The notes under the pieces: model-generated | Told to the model about the DNA's origin: nothing | Databases searched by the model: none | What the model saw: the letters and a program-made list of their open reading frames with translations, nothing else | Made by a program: the position numbers and the translations under genes | Shown here: positions 45,378 to 53,850 of the stretch, piece after piece | How the letters are laid out: every line of letters starts with the position of its first letter | How positions within the stretch are numbered: the first letter of the stretch is position 1 | DNA from: Ostreococcus lucimarinus | Taxonomy: Eukaryota | Direction: 5' to 3' (one strand) | Length of the DNA stretch: 64,000 bases | Assembly (NCBI GenBank): GCA_000092065.1 | Contig: CP000600.1

Positions 45378-45575
45378 GCCGAGAGATCGACGCGCGACGA
45401 CGAGTGCGGCACATCGCGACGCCGAGACGGCGTCGACGCGACGCGCGAGACGACGACGACGCGCGCGAAACATTCGCCCTCGTCGCGACGCGCACAGAGC
45501 GACGGACGCGCGCGGAGCGACGCGCACAGAGCGCGCGAGAGATTTGAATTTTAAATCATCGCGCAGCGCGGAAAG

Positions 45576-46346
45576 ATGACGGCGACGACGACGCCGGACG
45601 ACGCGATGGAGGACGCGCGTCCGTCGCGCGACCGCGGCGCGCGCGTCGCGGAGTTGCGGGCGTCGTTCGAGAGCGCGCTGCGGGCGTGCGCGGAGCCGCC
45701 GACGGCGCAGGTGGGTGGACGCGAGACGACGCGGTGGTTCCCCCGCGCGCGACGCGCGCGCGGATGAGGAAAGGAGACGCGCGAGGCGTCGCGAAGGCGC
45801 GAGGCGAGCGAGCGACGAGAGACGATGGAGGACTGACTCGCGATGCGATCGATCGGCGCGTCGGCGCAGGAATTCATACGCGCGTTTCCGGGGTTGAATC
45901 CGGCGCACCACGCGGCGCTGTACGACGCGTACGCCGAGGCGTTGAGATCCGTGGGGCGACACGCCGAGGAGGAATTCGAGGCGATCTGCGAGGAAGAGAG
46001 CGTGGAGGCGCGATTGAATGCGATCGATGCGCTGTGCGCGGAGCGAGGGGTGATGGATCTGGACGTCGCGTCGAACGCGGCGCGCGTGGCGTACTCGGGA
46101 AAGTCGCCGGATGAGGTGGCGCGGAACACGCGCGCCGAGGCGAAGCGAAAGGAGGCGGAGACGCTGCGCGAGGAGGCGGCGGCGCTCGAGATGGCGGCGC
46201 AGGAGACGATCGCCGCGTTAGAGGCGAAGCGCGAGGCGGTTCGGGCGGCGGCGACCGGGCTGAAGACTGGCACGCAGGGCGGCGACGTCGTGCAAGACGC
46301 GTCGACGCGGTGGGCGGCGCGAGCGCCGCAGCCGCTCAAGTCTTGA
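45576..46346 (+). CDS. NNF1: NNF1/PMF1-like kinetochore (MIS12-complex) protein; exons 45576-45710 and 45870-46346, intron 45711-45869
   Basis: Exon 1 ...RVAELRASFESALRACAEPPTAQ ends at donor GTGGGT (45711). Acceptor GCGCAG at 45864-45869 with GACTGAC upstream. Exon 2 EFIRAFPGLNPAHHAALYDAYAEALRSVGRHAEEEFEAICEEESVEARLNAIDALCAE is similar to PMF1 FTDCYKCFYQLQPAMTQQIYDKFIAQLQTSIREEISDIKEEGNLEAVLNALDKIVEE; C-terminal coiled coil. The single-exon alternative 45843-46346 is also possible. Confidence 0.5.
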
Positions 46347-46414
46347 TCTAGTTTCAAATATTGTAACAATGTTTCCTACCTCCCTATCACTATCGCTAAT
46401 ACCGACTGATGCGG

Positions 46415-47509
46415 CTACAGCTTCGAGTCGCTCGCCGCGGCGAAGTACGAAGTCGCGTCGACGGCGGGCATCCATCCTCCGGGCGGCGGCGCGCCGACTT
46501 TGTCGATCAACACCGCCTCGACGCCGCGTCGGAAATCCGGGGCGTGGATGAACTTGACGATGAGAGCGTTGTCCATCGCTAAAACCCACTCCAGCGATTT
46601 CCCTCGCGATCGCCGCATGAGCTCTAAGGACACGCCCAGGCTCGTCGGCGACGCCTTGGCGACGCTCTCTCGGCACTCCGCGAAAAACGCTCGCTCCGCC
46701 TCGCTCTCCGCCGCGTCTTCTTTTCGCGCGATCTCGCGCGTGATATCATCCAGCGACATGGCGTCGTTCCCGAACACCTCGTCGATCATCGCGCGCCCGC
46801 GTTCGCTGGTCAAGTACGACGTCGCCGCCGGTTCGTCCCGCTCGCCGCTCGCCGCCGCGCGCGCTAAATCCTCCACGCTCGCCCCGCGCTCGAGCGCGTT
46901 CACGCGTTTCTCCGTCTCTCGATCCCAAACCTCCATCGTGACGTAATGCGTGGCGAGTCCGATGCGCTTGCAATCGATCCCTCGAACGCGCGCCCCCGTG
47001 AGGCTCAGGCACGTCGCGTACGCGTGCCCGCACAGCGCGTTCAAAAACCATCCCGCGCCCACGTCCGGGTACAGCCCGATCGCGCACTCCGGCATCGCAA
47101 ACACCGTCGCATCCGTCGCGACGCGCACGGGACAATAACAACTCAACCCCGCGCCGCCGCCCATGACGACGCCGTTCCACACGCACGCGCTCGGCTTGCG
47201 CAGCGCGTGCAGCGCCGCGTTCAGCGCGAACTCCCGATCGAAGAACGCGATCGCGCCGTCGACGTCGCCGCGAACCACCATTTCGCGAACGGCGCGAACG
47301 TCGCCGCCGGCGCAGAACGCGCGCGAGCCGTGGCCTCGCAGGAGGTAGCACGCCGCGGCGTCGTCGCGCTCGGCGCGCTGGAACAATTCGTGCAAACGCT
47401 CCACGGCGTCGCGGTTGAGGGCGTTGAGCGCGCGCGGGCGATCGATGGTGACGTGCACGACGTTGTTTACGAGCGTCGCGCGCACGGGCTCGGGCTCGGG
47501 CTCGGACAT
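46415..47509 (-). CDS. HIBCH: 3-hydroxyisobutyryl-CoA hydrolase-like (crotonase/enoyl-CoA hydratase superfamily)
   Basis: ATG verified at 47509. CAGGDVRAV..FFDREFALNAALHALRKPSACVWNGVVMGGGAGLSCYCPVRVATDATVFAMPECAIGLYPDVGAGWFL is the HIBCH/CHY1 signature; C-terminal helical domain. Confidence 0.8.
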   Translation of the reverse strand: MSEPEPEPVRATLVNNVVHVTIDRPRALNALNRDAVERLHELFQRAERDDAAACYLLRGHGSRAFCAGGDVRAVREMVVRGDVDGAIAFFDREFALNAALHALRKPSACVWNGVVMGGGAGLSCYCPVRVATDATVFAMPECAIGLYPDVGAGWFLNALCGHAYATCLSLTGARVRGIDCKRIGLATHYVTMEVWDRETEKRVNALERGASVEDLARAAASGERDEPAATSYLTSERGRAMIDEVFGNDAMSLDDITREIARKEDAAESEAERAFFAECRESVAKASPTSLGVSLELMRRSRGKSLEWVLAMDNALIVKFIHAPDFRRGVEAVLIDKVGAPPPGGWMPAVDATSYFAAASDSKL

Positions 47510-47615
47510 CGCGCGCGTCGACGTGCGGACGGGCGGCGGGGCGCGCCCGGGGCCTTGGCGCGCGGGACGGGACGGGACGGCGACGACGCGCGAACGGCAC
47601 GGTTGCGATGAATGA

Positions 47616-50600
47616 TTAAAAGGCGCGCTTGGGGCGCTTCCTCAAGATGCGAGCGACGGGAGGCCGTGGACTCGGTTCGTCGCCGTCGCTGTCGCCGTCG
47701 GTGTCGAAATCAAAGGTGTGCTTGAGGGGAGAAAAGTCGGCGCGATCGCGCTCGGCTTTGGCGCGCTTCTTGGCGTCAGACGTGGGGATCTTGGACGTGA
47801 GCGCGATGAGCGGACCGGGAACTGGATTCACCGCCAAAGTGAGCGGATCGTTTGCGGCCACGCTCGGCATGGCGTGGAGCTCGTTCGCGCACATCATCTT
47901 GCGCTTCTTCGTTCGCTCGCCAGCGTTCGTCGTCGTCGTCGTCGTCGTCGCGGTGAGGTCTGATTTGGACGAGGAATGCGGCGGTGGGTTTTCCACGGGC
48001 GATGCGTCGTGCGTCGTGGGAGAAGGTTCCGATGAAGTGCGCTCGGCGGTTTCTTCCGTTTGCACGGCGGTTTCAGGCTCGTCAAAATCGTACGTTTGCA
48101 CGGCAATTTCGCGCCGCGGAGACTCACCAAAGTCGTCCGTCTGCACGGCGATTTCGCGCCGCGGCGATGCCGATACCGTTGGCTGTTTCGCTGACGCAGT
48201 GTATTCCGTCTGTGTTTGGACATCCTTCATCGGGGTTGAGGACTTCGATTGCGGCGAAGTCGCCTTCTCCATCTGAGCGTTCCCCTTCGTCGACTTGATA
48301 ATCGGTGCCGGACTCTGCACCTCGATTTCGTCCGTATCGACGTCGGGGTCGGCGTCCGGCACCAAGGTACCTTGGATCGATTCCTCTCGGTCATCGATGA
48401 CTGTGGTTTGTTCTTCCTCGCCGACTGTGATTTGTTCTTCTTCCTCGCCGACTGTGGTTTGTTCTTCTTCCTCGCCGACTGTGATTTGTTCTTCTTCCTC
48501 GACGGGTTCGATTTGATCTTCGTCTTCCTCGACGGGTTCGATTTGATCTTCGTCTTCCTCGACGGGTTCGATTTGATCTTCGTCTTCCTCGACGGGGACG
48601 ATTTGTTGCTCCGTCACCTCGATTGACTCTTCTTCATTCGCCTCCATCTCCGGCGCCGCGGGCGCTTCTGCGGGCATGTGTATCTGTAGAGGGAATTCAT
48701 CTAAACCAACATTGATACCATCGTCCGCAGCTTTGATCGCATCGGTAATAGCCGGACTTAAGACGGGCGGTTTCGTCAACTGGAAAGGAAGCGCACCGAT
48801 TTCTGAGAGCGCAATCAGCTTCTTTGCCTTTTCCGCCCTGGAGAGCGGCTCGCGAGCCTCTGAGCCAAGGATGAGACTCGTCACCGTCATGTGTGAATGC
48901 GCGAGTTTCACGTCTGGCGAGATCACAGTGAACATCGAAGGTTTCGCAACGCGTGCTCTAAATTCCGGCATGACTTGTTTCTTCACGTAAGGACTCATAC
49001 ACGTCAAGCATGCTTGCATGGCGTCTTCGCTCGCGATGAGAATGTAGGGCGTATAAAATTTCTCAATTTCTTTCGTCGCCTTTTCGATGATGAGATCATT
49101 CATCGTGCACGCTGTATGGGATATAGCGTTAATCACGTCCGTCATCATCGCCCTGACACCCTCCGGTGGCGGCACTTCAGTGGTCTCGTCCAACGGATGG
49201 AAGGCGCACATCAAACCAGCGGTGACTGACTTGAGTTGTCGATTTATCTCGATTTGAATGTTCTTCGTACATTCGAGCCAAAGACGCGTGGTACTCTCCC
49301 CAGCAACTTTCGCTGAATTCATGTACGCATATCTATGCGCCGGGCTCAACTTGAATTTAGTTAGCGCTAAATTGAAGAGCGCTCGCATCATGGCGCGCTT
49401 CGGATCATCTTCGGGGCCTGCGAGACTCGCAATCTGATTTTTCACCAAAGCGCCAAACATCAATTCGCCAGTACTTTGATCAGAGACGAGAGAGTGACAC
49501 CAAGCAGCATTGACACTCTCACAGACTTGGAATAATAATCCTCGAGGCTTTTGCGGCGTGTTTTTTCCGTTAAAGTTGAAGTAGAAAGTTGCCTCCAAGA
49601 CCTTTCCAAAGTAATCCACCGCCTCGATGATAAATCCACGCACGTCTGCTGGCGTTCGAATGTCATGGATGCGTTCCTCAGGCCTTAAATTTTTCGTCAA
49701 GACCTCACGCACGACTGCCGCGCGACCGTGCTTGATGGCATGAATATCAAGCGGCTCCATGGCTACTTTCATCGAGACCGCGATGACGCGAGTGCAAAAC
49801 TGGTGCGCTAGTTCATACACTCTTCTCGCCGCATAAGCGCCACCTTCGCCTAATCTGAACTCGATATCATCGTAAAATCCACGAAGAGAATCATCAGAAC
49901 ACGTTGGAAGCGCACAAAGCGGTTCGGCGGCGACGCAGAAAGCCTTGAGTACGTCGTGGACTCGTCGCGTCACGCGGCGCATCGCCTTCAACTGTCTTGC
50001 CCGCTTGAGCTCCTCCAGAGTGGCGTTCAAAGAACCATGACCGGTGATACTCTGCACATCAAACTTTTCAGGGTCCAAAACTTTGGCCCAAGACAGACGA
50101 AACTCGAGGAACTTCCAAGCTACCGCAATTACGGCGTTGGCTGTCTGCTTGAGCTCGCGAACACTTCCGGTTTGATCCATCAACATCTTCAGCAACTCGG
50201 CGCGGCGGACCGTGGCTATCTCTACTGTGTTTTCGTTGATGACTCGATCGATCGCCCATTGAATCTCTTCGTCCACTGGCGGGAAATCTTTTGCAAGTTC
50301 TTCCACGCTGACATCTCTACCGAGTTTACGCTTTAACAATGCGCTCGCACGTTTCAAAGTTGTCGCTGTGCTTCCCCAAATACGATCACCTTGAACGGCA
50401 TTTATGAAACGTCTAGTTGCTGGTCGAATCGCCAGTTGCTGCAAAAATCCACTTTTATGAAGCGACCGCACAATATCGCCCGTGACTTCACGCGAGTCGC
50501 CAAGGCAAATAACGGCGGCAGCGTTGCGCAAAGCGGCGACGAGATGCCTGTCTCGAGCGGGATCGGAATCGCCCGCACCGGGCGCATCGATCAGAACTAA

Positions 50601-52004
50601 ACCACGCTTTTGCGGTGGAACTGGGATATCTATCCGGACTTCACGCAGTAACCCCCAACACGACGATGGAATGTGCGTTTGAGTGAACACGGTGTGCTTC
50701 GTCGCTCTCAAAGCGCGCTGAAACGTACGTTCGTCAGTATAATCTATTGGTTCGTCAGGTTTGCCGTTTTTGTTTCTGTCGGTTTTGTACTCGAACTCAA
50801 CGCGCTTGCCTAACCGTTCGATATACTCGGCTGGAATTGCCACGTCGCTCTCGTCCAAGTCAGCGAGCGTCGATATGTTCGGGTCAAGCCCGACCATGGC
50901 GCACGCCACCCTGAGCACCGACGGTAATCCGTAGCCATCGTCTGGAACCGCTTCCCCTTCCTTCGGCTTCGTCCTAAAATCTAAAAGCGTAGTTTCTTCC
51001 AAACCTCGAGCCTTGAGCTCCTTTTTCACGTACGATTCGGCGTAAAAGCCTAAGCCCTTGCGAGCCGATTCGATTGCCCGCGCTTGGCGCACCGCGTACT
51101 GGAGCGCGTGCACGTGTTGCTTGACGACATCCTCGCTAAAGTACACCAAACTCACTCTGAAGGCGTCGGATGTTCTCACAGAAGACGCCACGGACGTCGT
51201 GTCCATGACATCACCCTCTGGGAGCAAAAACGGCGGCGGTCTCGCATTTTTGAGTCTGGGATCGTTCTCCAAAAAATCCTTCAACGTCGTGGGCGGCGGC
51301 GGGAACTTCTTCTTTCGCACCGGAATCTCATACGCCGCGATCGCCGCGTCGTACTTCTGACGCTTCGCTTCCTCGGCCGCTTTCTTCGCCGCCTCCTTAT
51401 CGCGCGCCTCCTGATGCTCCTTGTACAAGACGTAACTCGGCTTGACTTTCTGCCCCTTCTTCTGCGCCTTCTTCGCCGCCTCCTTGAGCTTTTCCTTGCG
51501 AATCGCGTCCGCCTCCGAATCCTTGAACGCATCCCCCCGTATCTCTCTTCCTCGCATGTGTCTCGGCATGTACACCGCCGCGCTCGTGTCTCGATCCAAC
51601 GGCGGCGGCGGCGCGAACGCGCTCGCGTTCGCGTCCAACGCCGCCCCCCCCTCGTCCTCCCAATCGTCCTCCATCGCTCGCGCTTTATCCTCCTCCGCCT
51701 CCTCCGCGCGTTCATCGTGATCTCGCATCTTCGTCAGCGTCAGTTTCCCGTTCGCGCCGCCAGTTCCGACCCTTCCTCGCGCGTCGCCTCGACTCGCCAG
51801 CTCCCGCAGCAGCCCGTTCAGCACGTGACTCTTCCCCACCCCCGACCGCCCCAGCGCCACGACTCGCAGCGGCGCCGACGTCGCGCGTTCGTATTCCTCC
51901 ATCGCCCGCGTCGTCTCCTCCACCAGCCGTCGTCGCGCGCTCTCCGGCACGACGTACGTCGACCCCGGCGCGTCGAGCGTCGCCGCGCGTCCGTGCGACA
52001 GCAT
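47616..52004 (-). CDS. giant P-loop GTPase (dynamin-like G1/G3 motifs) with long low-complexity insert and acidic tandem-repeat C-terminal region
   Basis: ALGRSGVGKSHVLNGLL (GxxxxGKS) and VLIDAPGAGDSD (DxxG) are separated by a ~440-aa Lys/Glu/Ala-rich insert. After the G-domain comes a long helical region, then EEDEDQIEPV x3, GEEEEQ(T/I)TV x4 and REIAVQT repeats, then a basic tail. The candidate ATG at 52004 (MLSHGRAATLD) was verified; the upstream ATG 52313 would leave only 21 bp to the divergent TTC1 start. The first ~290 codons of track ORF 47616-53195 are antisense to TTC1 and were rejected. Confidence 0.5.
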   Translation of the reverse strand: MLSHGRAATLDAPGSTYVVPESARRRLVEETTRAMEEYERATSAPLRVVALGRSGVGKSHVLNGLLRELASRGDARGRVGTGGANGKLTLTKMRDHDERAEEAEEDKARAMEDDWEDEGGAALDANASAFAPPPPLDRDTSAAVYMPRHMRGREIRGDAFKDSEADAIRKEKLKEAAKKAQKKGQKVKPSYVLYKEHQEARDKEAAKKAAEEAKRQKYDAAIAAYEIPVRKKKFPPPPTTLKDFLENDPRLKNARPPPFLLPEGDVMDTTSVASSVRTSDAFRVSLVYFSEDVVKQHVHALQYAVRQARAIESARKGLGFYAESYVKKELKARGLEETTLLDFRTKPKEGEAVPDDGYGLPSVLRVACAMVGLDPNISTLADLDESDVAIPAEYIERLGKRVEFEYKTDRNKNGKPDEPIDYTDERTFQRALRATKHTVFTQTHIPSSCWGLLREVRIDIPVPPQKRGLVLIDAPGAGDSDPARDRHLVAALRNAAAVICLGDSREVTGDIVRSLHKSGFLQQLAIRPATRRFINAVQGDRIWGSTATTLKRASALLKRKLGRDVSVEELAKDFPPVDEEIQWAIDRVINENTVEIATVRRAELLKMLMDQTGSVRELKQTANAVIAVAWKFLEFRLSWAKVLDPEKFDVQSITGHGSLNATLEELKRARQLKAMRRVTRRVHDVLKAFCVAAEPLCALPTCSDDSLRGFYDDIEFRLGEGGAYAARRVYELAHQFCTRVIAVSMKVAMEPLDIHAIKHGRAAVVREVLTKNLRPEERIHDIRTPADVRGFIIEAVDYFGKVLEATFYFNFNGKNTPQKPRGLLFQVCESVNAAWCHSLVSDQSTGELMFGALVKNQIASLAGPEDDPKRAMMRALFNLALTKFKLSPAHRYAYMNSAKVAGESTTRLWLECTKNIQIEINRQLKSVTAGLMCAFHPLDETTEVPPPEGVRAMMTDVINAISHTACTMNDLIIEKATKEIEKFYTPYILIASEDAMQACLTCMSPYVKKQVMPEFRARVAKPSMFTVISPDVKLAHSHMTVTSLILGSEAREPLSRAEKAKKLIALSEIGALPFQLTKPPVLSPAITDAIKAADDGINVGLDEFPLQIHMPAEAPAAPEMEANEEESIEVTEQQIVPVEEDEDQIEPVEEDEDQIEPVEEDEDQIEPVEEEEQITVGEEEEQTTVGEEEEQITVGEEEQTTVIDDREESIQGTLVPDADPDVDTDEIEVQSPAPIIKSTKGNAQMEKATSPQSKSSTPMKDVQTQTEYTASAKQPTVSASPRREIAVQTDDFGESPRREIAVQTYDFDEPETAVQTEETAERTSSEPSPTTHDASPVENPPPHSSSKSDLTATTTTTTTNAGERTKKRKMMCANELHAMPSVAANDPLTLAVNPVPGPLIALTSKIPTSDAKKRAKAERDRADFSPLKHTFDFDTDGDSDGDEPSPRPPVARILRKRPKRAF
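48085..48621. repeat. nested coding tandem repeats (48-nt x2; 27-nt x4; 30-nt x3-4)
   Basis: ccgactgtg(a/g)tttgttcttcttcctcg x3 (plus a variant copy at 48394) from 48394-48501; acgggttcgatttgatcttcgtcttcctcg x3 at 48502-48591 plus a degenerate copy; acggc(a/g)atttcgcgccgcgg... x2 at ~48085-48180. Confidence 0.85.
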
Positions 52005-52334
52005 CAGCTCCCGCGTCGACCGCAGCGCGTCGTGCAGCGCGCCCGTCTGCGCGTCGAAACAAAAAGCGCGGCGTTTACGGTCAGTCGCGAAGTTCGTCGT
52101 TCCGCGCGCGTCGTCGTTCCGCGCGCGTCGCGACGATTTCATTTCATTTTCGCGCGCTTCGATTCGCGTTCGACGCACCCGCACGACGCGCAGCGCGGCG
52201 TCGACGGCGTCGGCGTCCGTCAGGTCCCCGCACGCGCTCTCCGCGTGCCGCGCGAGCGAGCGCGCGCGGCGCTCGGCGCGCGCGGCGTCGGAATCATCGG
52301 ATTCGTCGCGCATCGCCGCACAGTGCCGCGCGCG

Positions 52335-53060
52335 ATGGTCGCGCTCGTCGACGCGGACGACGCGCGCGGCGCGACGGACGCGCGCGACGACGACGGCGAC
52401 GCGCGCGACGCGCGCGGCGACGCGCGCGACGCGGCGGCGCGGCGGCGCGATGGGAACGCGGCGTTCGCGCGGGGCGCGTACGCCGAGGCGTCGCGCGCGT
52501 ACACGGACGCGCTGACGCGCGCGCGCGGCGATGGGCGCGGCGACGCGCGCGAGGACGCTTTGGACGCGGGCGAGGACGCGGCGGGCGCGGCGCGCGGCGA
52601 CGGGGACGCGGCGACGTGTCTGGCGAATCGCGCGGCGTGTTGGTTGAAGCTGGAGCGATACGAGGACGCGGCGAGGGATTGCGACGAGGCGATCGCGATC
52701 GATGGGACGTACGCGAAGGCGTACGCGAGACGGGCGCGCGCGAGGGAGGCGCTCGGGGACGAGGAGGGGGCGCTGGAGGATTGGGAGAGGACGCGCGCGT
52801 TGGCGCCGAGGGACGCGACGGCGAGGGACGAGACGAGGCGACTGAAGCCGGTGGTGGAGCGGAAACGGGAAGAGATGAAGAGAGAGATGTTGGATAAGAT
52901 GAAGGATTTGGGGAACTCTTTGCTCGGGAACTTTGGGCTGAGTTTGGATAACTTCAAGGCGGAGAAGGACGCGACGACGGGGAGTTACTCGATTCACTTC
53001 GTCGACGAAAAGAAACGCTCGACGACTGGCGACGAGGACGACGAGGACGACGAGAACTGA
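52335..53060 (+). CDS. TTC1: TTC1-like tetratricopeptide-repeat protein
   Basis: ATG verified at 52335. TPRs (GNAAFARGAYAEASRAYTDAL...ATCLANRAACWLKLERYEDAARDCDEAIAIDGTYAKAYARRARAREALGDEEGALEDWERTRALAP). C-terminus KMKDLGNSLLGNFGLSLDNFKAEKDATTGSYSIHFV matches the TTC1 C-terminal motif (LGN..L..FGLST.NF....D..TGSYSI.FV). Confidence 0.7.
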   Translation: MVALVDADDARGATDARDDDGDARDARGDARDAAARRRDGNAAFARGAYAEASRAYTDALTRARGDGRGDAREDALDAGEDAAGAARGDGDAATCLANRAACWLKLERYEDAARDCDEAIAIDGTYAKAYARRARAREALGDEEGALEDWERTRALAPRDATARDETRRLKPVVERKREEMKREMLDKMKDLGNSLLGNFGLSLDNFKAEKDATTGSYSIHFVDEKKRSTTGDEDDEDDEN

Positions 53061-53136
53061 GCTCGCGCGCGCGGTGCGCTCGCTATAGCTATTAAAATTG
53101 TCACACGCGCGCGCTCGAGCGTCGCGAGAGTCTAGT

Positions 53137-53850
53137 CTAATCGCCGTCGCGTTCGAGTCCGCCGCGCAACGCGAGCTGTCGACACCGCTTTTCAAACGCT
53201 TGAATCTGCGACCTCGCGACGTCGTCGAAGACCACGCTCACCGCCGCGGCGTGCATGGGATCTTTAACTTCAAAATCAATCTCGAAATCCACGATGACGC
53301 CCTCGGCGGGTAATCCCGTGACCGGGTCTTCGTCCTCGTCGTCGTCGAGCGGCGAAAATTTCCACGTCGTCGTCATCGACCGAAACAACCCGCTCGACAC
53401 GCTCGTCGCCGTCACGCGCTCCGGTCGCGCGCACGTCACCGCGCTCGTGTACTTCTCGTTGAATAATTTAAACCCAATCTCCAAATCCGCCTCAAAGTAT
53501 TCCTCCCCTCGCGCCAGCGCCTCGCGTTCGCGTTCGCGTCCCCATCGCTCTCGCGGCGTCCGCCTCGCCCCCGCGCAGAACGGCACGAACGCCGCGTAAC
53601 TGTCCACGTCCGCCACCGCGTCGCACAGCGCGTCTCGCGCGATCCCCTTGACGATTCGTCGCGCCGAGAACCGTCGCCGCGCGCCCTCGTCGCCGTCGCC
53701 GTCGCCGTTTCGCCCGTCGCCGTCGTCACCGCGCGTCGCCACCTCCCGCGCGCGTCCGAGCGTCGCGCCGGGCGTCGCGCGGGTCGGCCCCACGGCGCGC
53801 GTCGCGCGCGTCGCCGCCTCCCGCGCGCGCCTCGCGAGCGCGCGCGACAT
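53137..53850 (-). CDS. COQ10: coenzyme Q-binding protein COQ10 (START/SRPBCC fold), mitochondrial
   Basis: FSARRIVKGIARDALCDAVADVDSYAAFVPFCAGAR...YFEADLEIGFKLFNEKYTSAVTC...TTWKFSPL...GVIVDFEIDFEVKDPMHAAAVSVVFDDVARSQIQAFEKRCRQL. The track start 53964 is GTG; ATG at 53850 precedes a presequence-like MSRALARRAREAATRATRAV. Confidence 0.7.
   Translation of the reverse strand: MSRALARRAREAATRATRAVGPTRATPGATLGRAREVATRGDDGDGRNGDGDGDEGARRRFSARRIVKGIARDALCDAVADVDSYAAFVPFCAGARRTPRERWGREREREALARGEEYFEADLEIGFKLFNEKYTSAVTCARPERVTATSVSSGLFRSMTTTWKFSPLDDDEDEDPVTGLPAEGVIVDFEIDFEVKDPMHAAAVSVVFDDVARSQIQAFEKRCRQLALRGGLERDGD

Follow-up and report, generated by a model that had tools for sequence, protein, structure and literature searches.

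A probable dynamin-superfamily protein with a charged, partly helical insertion ahead of switch I in Ostreococcus lucimarinus

Dynamin-superfamily proteins are the standard engines of membrane fission and fusion, with a G domain that is compact near switch I. What, then, is to be made of a gene in which the first and third motifs of a dynamin-like G domain stand 415 residues apart (G1 Lys to G3 Asp), with a highly charged segment between them? Such a gene lies in a 64,000-nucleotide stretch of the Ostreococcus lucimarinus contig CP000600.1 (hereafter the window, numbered from its first letter), where a complete single-exon coding sequence occupies positions 47616-52004 of the minus strand and comprises 1462 codons plus a stop. 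The translation begins MLSHGR and, by the open reading frame (ORF) list and an exact-sequence look-up, is identical to XP_001422760.1 (ABP01077.1; UniProt A4SBE0), whose public name is “predicted protein” (Ostreococcus lucimarinus CCE9901). Is this a gene model that has swallowed an intron, a fusion of two genes, or one unusual protein, and if the last, of which family and with what task? We find a single intron-free gene, and consider it likely that its product is a soluble, highly divergent member of the dynamin superfamily, 1462 residues long and nearest in sequence and fold to bacterial dynamin-like proteins (DLPs) and mitofusin-type proteins.

A G domain with an insertion before switch I

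Motif spacings and counts of invariance were derived from an alignment of 17 sequences (A4) that includes genuine Dynamin_N proteins; all parts of the protein described here and below are encoded on the minus strand. The P-loop or G1 motif, GRSGVGKSHV (residues 52-61; 51822-51851), leads into helix α1 and conforms to GxxxxGK[ST] at residues 52-59 (GRSGVGKS, invariant in 15 orthologues), while the longer pattern GxxGxGKS..LN is invariant throughout A4, the genuine Dynamin_N proteins included. The G3 motif or switch II, LIDAPGAGD (residues 471-479; 50568-50594), supplies DxxG as DAPG (residues 473-476), with D-x-P-G again invariant; both motifs lie where the original prediction, made from the DNA alone, had seen them. 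Switch I (G2) is PFLLPEGDVMDTTSVASSV (residues 258-276; 51177-51233), 88% identical among orthologues. Written as 'PFLLPEGDVMDTTSV', it aligns with 'LLPHDSGSAVTTSV' of P0042, a protein scoring 59.6 bits against Dynamin_N, and also with 'LLPSGGVGPLTG' of P0132-type proteins. Its conserved Thr, that of 'DTTSV', is invariant in A4, as are the G1 Lys and the G3 Asp, and sits 212, not ~23, residues past the P-loop Lys. The G4 motif, INAVQGD (residues 534-540; 50385-50405), falls at the end of a predicted β-strand and is degenerate: NAVQGD aligns with the TKLD, THAD or TVCD of relatives and keeps the Asp, but lacks the N/T and K of [N/T]KxD. This Asp is present in 16 of the 17 sequences, the Chlorokybus row appearing to be misaligned there, and the G3-G4 interval is 88% identical among orthologues.

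Measured against Dynamin_N relatives, G3 to G4 is of ordinary length (67 residues here, 66-69 there), the stretch from the switch-I Thr to the G3 Asp is longer (203 versus ~150), and that from the G1 Lys to the switch-I Thr is out of all proportion (212 versus 22-24). Because of these spacings, the gap between G1 and G3 is read from the alignment as a true insertion of ~188 residues between α1 and switch I (insert A), followed by a conserved G2-to-G3 segment ~53 residues over the usual length. The ~440-residue charged low-complexity insert proposed originally therefore shrinks to some 185-190 residues (73-257); the remaining ~210 residues of the gap, switch I among them, belong to the G domain proper and are folded and well conserved. 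Nor is “low-complexity” apt, since even residues 73-257 are 42-54% conserved among orthologues and are in part predicted to be helical.

The charged Lys/Glu/Ala-rich character noted at the outset does hold for insert A (51234-51788), 41% of whose residues are charged, rising to 48% in a K/E-rich core (residues 151-235; 51300-51554). Its elements are a disordered acidic stretch, one short strand, a pair of long helices rich in Lys, Glu and Ala (residues ~158-183 and 189-224; net charge +11) and a Pro-rich linker; for the helices, the block means of the predicted local distance difference test (pLDDT) are ~63-91 in the AlphaFold2 (AF2) model built from A4. Beyond switch I, the conserved G2-to-G3 part (residues 277-470; 50595-51176) contains a β2-β3 hairpin, a long helix and an additional acidic loop of ~50 residues (insert B), with LRVACAMVGLDPN, RLGKRVEFEY and CWGLLREVRIDIP as its conserved blocks. 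In the eukaryotic relatives P0021, P0026 and P0027 the distance from the P-loop Lys to the switch-I Thr is 89, 225 and 124 residues, respectively, that is, inserts of differing length at the same place, and the site before switch I is a variable hot spot in this clade.

Might the charged segment nevertheless be a missed intron, or the whole ORF a merger, in GC-rich, stop-poor DNA, of two neighbouring genes, one for a small P-loop protein and the other for a large helical one? Ostreococcus DNA of this kind does yield long spurious frames, long antisense ORFs are plentiful, the GTPase ORF itself stays open for 1.2 kb upstream of its real start, and the segment is compositionally biased. Yet the sequence between G1 and G3 is in frame with zero stop codons, and against an 89%-identical relative (locus L002) the ratio of nonsynonymous to synonymous substitution rates (dN/dS, with dS at 0.12-0.15) is 0.34 for residues 76-256 and 0.18 for the K/E-rich core, compared with 0.41 for the whole gene. 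The insert retains 42-54% protein identity across lineages whose cores are only ~50% identical overall, more than the 35-37% of the helical stalk, with PPPPLD, VYxPRHMRG and KVKPSYVLYK recognizable across orthologues. Switch I, without which the G domain is incomplete, is encoded downstream of the segment, and G1 alone would make no functional protein; moreover, the order G1-insert-G2-G3 recurs in the three remoter eukaryotic relatives, P0021, P0026 and the Chlorokybus protein P0027. Since the segment is in frame, under constraint (dN/dS 0.18-0.34) and conserved in 15 of 15 syntenic orthologues, both the over-called intron and the two fused genes contemplated in the original prediction are ruled out, the locus is one intron-free gene, and an annotation artefact of any sort merits next to no credence.

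Placement in the dynamin superfamily

The family to which this G domain belongs emerges from its relatives. Although the best orthologue reaches only 21.6 bits against the Pfam Dynamin_N cut-off of 27, sub-threshold matches centred on G3 occur in 11 of the 15 orthologues, and the cut-off is passed by P0026 (29.7), P0043 (39.1) and P0042. Searched against PDB, the A4 profile retrieved Campylobacter jejuni DLP1 (E 9e-7, matching at G1 as well as at G3) and IniA (E 7e-4), and fold comparison led the same way. An initial AF2 run on eight orthologues gave a poor G domain (pLDDT <50) and a better defined region at residues ~670-1060 (pLDDT 70-93), and a Foldseek search with it, in which BDLP was the top match for the whole core, returned nothing at E ≤ 1e-3. 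A second model, of the N-terminal 681 residues from the A4 alignment, had a mean pLDDT of 73.9 and a predicted template modelling score of 0.71. In the structure comparison IniA stood highest (15.9), followed by C. jejuni DLP1 (15.8), Fzo1 (15.3), SynDLP (15.2), MFN2 (14.6), the minimal G domain of SynDLP (14.4), EHD4 (13.6) and OPA1 (13.4), with the best generic GTPase at 12.9, so that the enlarged G-domain fold is nearest to solved dynamin-superfamily G domains. Behind it comes a stalk-like helical region (residues 561-1112; 48669-50324), which matches the stalks of Mx, OPA1 and SynDLP, with the caveat that helical bundles match promiscuously. The >900 residues of helical sequence and acidic repeats originally described past G3 can thus be apportioned to ~550 residues of predicted helices and a 350-residue acidic tail, with repeats at 48399-48622.

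Several observations weigh against this assignment. XP_001422760.1 itself has no match to Dynamin_N (PF00350) at E ≤ 1, nor any Pfam, NCBIfam, PADLOC or PDB sequence match at curated threshold; the A4 profile and the AF2 alignment contain bacterial Dynamin_N sequences, which may bias both towards that fold; and a G4 devoid of N/T and K leaves guanine specificity, and even catalysis, as putative. These points lend some colour to a different view, in which the protein would be a P-loop NTPase of another class (a STAND or AAA ATPase, or a TRAFAC GTPase of the AIG1/Toc, septin or Era-like kind) joined to helical repeats, its likeness to dynamins being superficial. The sole Pfam matches of XP_001422760.1, all weak and all on the P-loop, are indeed to AAA_16, MMR_HSR1, RsgA and nSTAND, and an orthologue-only profile found in PDB just P-loop noise, Toc34 and EngC at E ~0.3. 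Such matches, however, span merely 25-50 residues, whereas the G3 region matches Dynamin_N, remoter family members pass its threshold and the stalk resembles those of Mx, OPA1 and SynDLP; we accordingly reject a STAND/AAA identity and regard another NTPase class as very improbable.

Within the superfamily, the protein is not an orthologue of mitofusin or FZL, having neither a transmembrane segment (the top 19-residue Kyte-Doolittle mean is 1.33) nor a mitofusin-family sequence match, and membership of the atlastin/GBP and IRG families was likewise rejected, their specific G domains being neither recognized by sequence nor the best fold match. The original prediction had been unable to place the protein in the dynamin, atlastin, mitofusin or IRG subfamilies; it does fall outside the classical dynamins and the other three, but it can be placed, by sequence and fold, beside proteins of the bacterial-DLP and mitofusin type.

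The acidic tail, mechanism and site of action

The C-terminal tail (residues 1113-1462; 47619-48668) is acidic, with a net charge of -52, and disordered (pLDDT <50). Among its motifs are FDFD, two basic clusters (KKRK and RKRPKR) and three copies of AVQT, of which two belong to a repeated SPRREIAVQT unit. Positions 48399-48622 are occupied by imperfect tandem repeats (periods of 27, 30, 54 and 60 nt) that encode (PVEEDEDQIE)n and (EEEQ[IT]TVGE)n. Repeat number is probably polymorphic, because environmental proteins of the same 90% cluster vary in length (1556-1576 residues) and P0001 departs from XP_001422760.1 inside the repeat block. In 8 of the 15 orthologues (P0008-P0015) the tail also contains a GATA-type zinc finger, C-x2-C-x17/18-C-x2-C (PF00320; best E 3.7e-6; at most 26.5 bits, marginally under the 26.8 cut-off), located for instance at residue 1353 of P0010 (L005:2368-7314) and residue 1213 of P0008 (L006:1554-6047). 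The finger is absent from XP_001422760.1 and its nearest clade. As finger-bearing lineages are basal in a rough neighbour-joining tree, the aligned proteins suggest that the O. lucimarinus / O. tauri clade has since lost it. To our knowledge, a GATA finger and a dynamin-like GTPase have not been described in one ORF.

As in other dynamin-superfamily proteins, nucleotide binding would probably drive G-domain dimerization and hydrolysis, which in turn would move the helical stalk. Directly upstream of switch I as it is, the charged helical insert would be well placed to gate or regulate the hydrolysis step or to couple it to a partner. Where this would happen is the weakest and most speculative step. 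The site may be the nucleus or chromatin instead of a membrane, as suggested by the lack of a membrane-inserting element, the basic clusters resembling nuclear localization signals (NLSs) and the GATA finger of basal orthologues. Taken to its full extent, the idea is of a dynamin-type mechanochemical GTPase acting on chromatin or DNA in the nucleus, ancestrally tethered by the GATA finger that the O. lucimarinus / O. tauri clade has lost, its insert coupling nucleic-acid or partner binding to GTP hydrolysis. Its support comes from short basic motifs and from a zinc finger missing in O. lucimarinus, and literature searches found no expression, localization or biochemical data on this GTPase; we put it forward as a tentative proposal that is rather unlikely to hold in full.

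Work on membranes, for example organelle or envelope remodelling, with contact made either by the basic Lys-rich helices in insert A or via partner proteins, is a serious possibility, if short of an even chance. Most characterized relatives by fold (IniA, DLP1, SynDLP, mitofusins, OPA1 and EHD4) act on membranes, the +11 charge of the K/E-rich helices could serve to bind acidic lipids, and MxB-like stalks mediate oligomerization. No hydrophobic membrane segment or paddle is found in XP_001422760.1, though, and no PH-like module in its Pfam search, while the tail has NLS-like clusters and, in eight orthologues, a DNA-binding type of finger that would be unexpected in a membrane enzyme. The membrane-remodelling role first suggested for the protein therefore has no direct support, the features of the tail pointing at least equally to the nucleus. 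The degenerate G4 and displaced switch I, for their part, could be those of a pseudo-GTPase or nucleotide-gated scaffold, a helical acidic platform that binds nucleotide without turnover or uses ATP. We think this unlikely: the P-loop K/S, switch-I T and DxxG are invariant over long divergence, the G4 Asp is all but universal in A4, and the high G3-G4 identity among orthologues argues for retained chemistry.

Locus, family and known counterparts

The locus itself raises a smaller question, that of the start codon. On the minus strand a single frame is open from 53195 down to 47616, and metagenome gene callers begin the GTPase 103 codons further upstream than the public model, at 52313 (P0001). 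This extension is missing from all orthologues in the alignment and would leave only ~21 bp to the start, at 52335, of a divergent gene for a tetratricopeptide repeat (TPR) protein on the plus strand (52335-53060); we therefore take 52004 as the start, the same Met being used by P0002, which is 89% identical to XP_001422760.1. The 330 bp in between (52005-52334) form a divergent intergenic region common to both genes, in which the minus-strand frame stays open without conservation as protein. Both frames run on for ~1.2 kb past their real starts, that of the GTPase at 52005-53195 and that of the TPR gene at 51084-52334, and so overlap each other; they are stop-poor artefacts of GC-rich DNA and the source of the too-early metagenome start.

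Third-position GC is 0.64 over the GTPase gene and 0.47-0.61 in its middle (48400-50650; residues ~451-1200), compared with 0.86-0.89 in the two flanking genes (46415-47509 and 52335-53060). The 89%-identical relative at L002 shows the same dip (0.64 versus 0.78-0.85) and the orthologue in L003 does not (0.75 versus 0.76); the cause may lie in low expression, in relaxed selection on codons or in local composition. Neither a tRNA gene nor an Rfam family at gathering threshold was found anywhere in the window.

Gene order, with the divergent TPR gene, the GTPase, an enoyl-CoA hydratase and Nnf1, is kept in every orthologue examined. It forms part of a wider block (L001-L006; ~45500-53100 in the window) of PsbP, a tRNA methyltransferase, a polyketide-cyclase-like protein, TPR, GTPase, enoyl-CoA hydratase, Nnf1, WD40 and Kazal genes, which persists in all lineages carrying the GTPase, although the latter is only ~50% identical between them.

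The family is small. Among 5.8 billion clustered proteins there are 15 homologues, all full length and 44-91% identical, and when 1.84 billion representative proteins were searched exhaustively with a HMMER profile (E ≤ 1e-3), just 34 matched, namely the orthologues and fragments of them, P0021, P0026 and P0027, with P0042 and P0043 marginal. P0021 (908 residues), P0026 (1005 residues, on a compact metagenomic contig of eukaryotic type) and P0027 (1308 residues, from Chlorokybus atmophyticus in EukProt) are the remoter, longer relatives. The family is confined to a handful of green-algal lineages, namely Ostreococcus and close relatives, two environmental lineages and Chlorokybus. The earlier suggestion of a lineage-restricted GTPase is borne out. 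Word-index homologue searches returned nine P0043-like proteins and nothing else for a mixed G-domain alignment, and only a self-match for the Chlorokybus protein. A prasinovirus origin finds no support, IMG/VR viral contigs containing no relative, and literature searches on the accessions and on dynamin surveys mentioning Ostreococcus or Chlorokybus yielded nothing on this family.

Invisible to Pfam and annotated merely as “predicted protein”, this GTPase family indicates that the dynamin fold can tolerate, and conserve for long, a structured charged module of ~190 residues right before switch I. A degenerate G4 and, in some lineages, a DNA-binding type of zinc finger on the same polypeptide are further peculiarities, and together they raise the question of whether an engine of the dynamin type has been turned to work other than on membranes. 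The Ostreococcus genome is among the smallest of free-living eukaryotes, genes retained there are usually functional, and Ostreococcus tauri, whose orthologue is OUS46061.1, is genetically tractable.

Known systems resemble the family only in part. Human SLIP-GC (NUGGC) is a nuclear dynamin-family GTPase and would set a precedent for a G domain of this type at work in the nucleus; we mention it as a functional analogy and a lead only, claiming no relationship. Mitofusins, Fzo1 and FZL differ in that XP_001422760.1 lacks their transmembrane segments and any mitofusin-family match, whereas mitofusins lack an insert before switch I. Nearest among proteins that pass the Dynamin_N threshold are P0042 (757 residues) and the P0043/P0132 type, which are probably prokaryotic, judging from size, composition and one Joint Genome Institute annotation. 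The latter type (P0043, P0129 and P0132-P0137) consists of uncharacterized metagenomic Dynamin_N proteins of 436-651 residues with a canonical TKLD G4 and weak similarity to LeoA/LeoBC, some having an N-terminal winged-helix-like extension. Like the algal proteins, P0042 and the P0043/P0132 type have the 'LLP..G....T' switch I, 'VD.PG.G', the 'SGFL' helix and the same G3-G4 spacing; unlike them, they lack insert A and the acidic tail, have a canonical TKLD or THAD G4 and are far shorter. DUF7605, weak in P0042, was detected in no member of the algal family. The bacterial DLPs used for comparison were Mycobacterium smegmatis IniA (6j72), C. jejuni DLP1 (5owv), Synechocystis SynDLP (7zw6) and Nostoc BDLP (2j68/2j69). 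In these, G1 and G3 are ~100-175 residues apart and switch I comes right after α1, in contrast to the 415 residues and 188-residue insert of XP_001422760.1; their G4 is canonical or near-canonical, whereas only the Asp is kept here; they possess membrane-binding paddles or loops, of which none was detected in XP_001422760.1; and the algal protein, with its disordered acidic tail, is twice as long. What the two share is the plan of a large G domain with long helical domains behind it, and it is DLP1 and IniA that are the best PDB sequence matches of the A4 profile.

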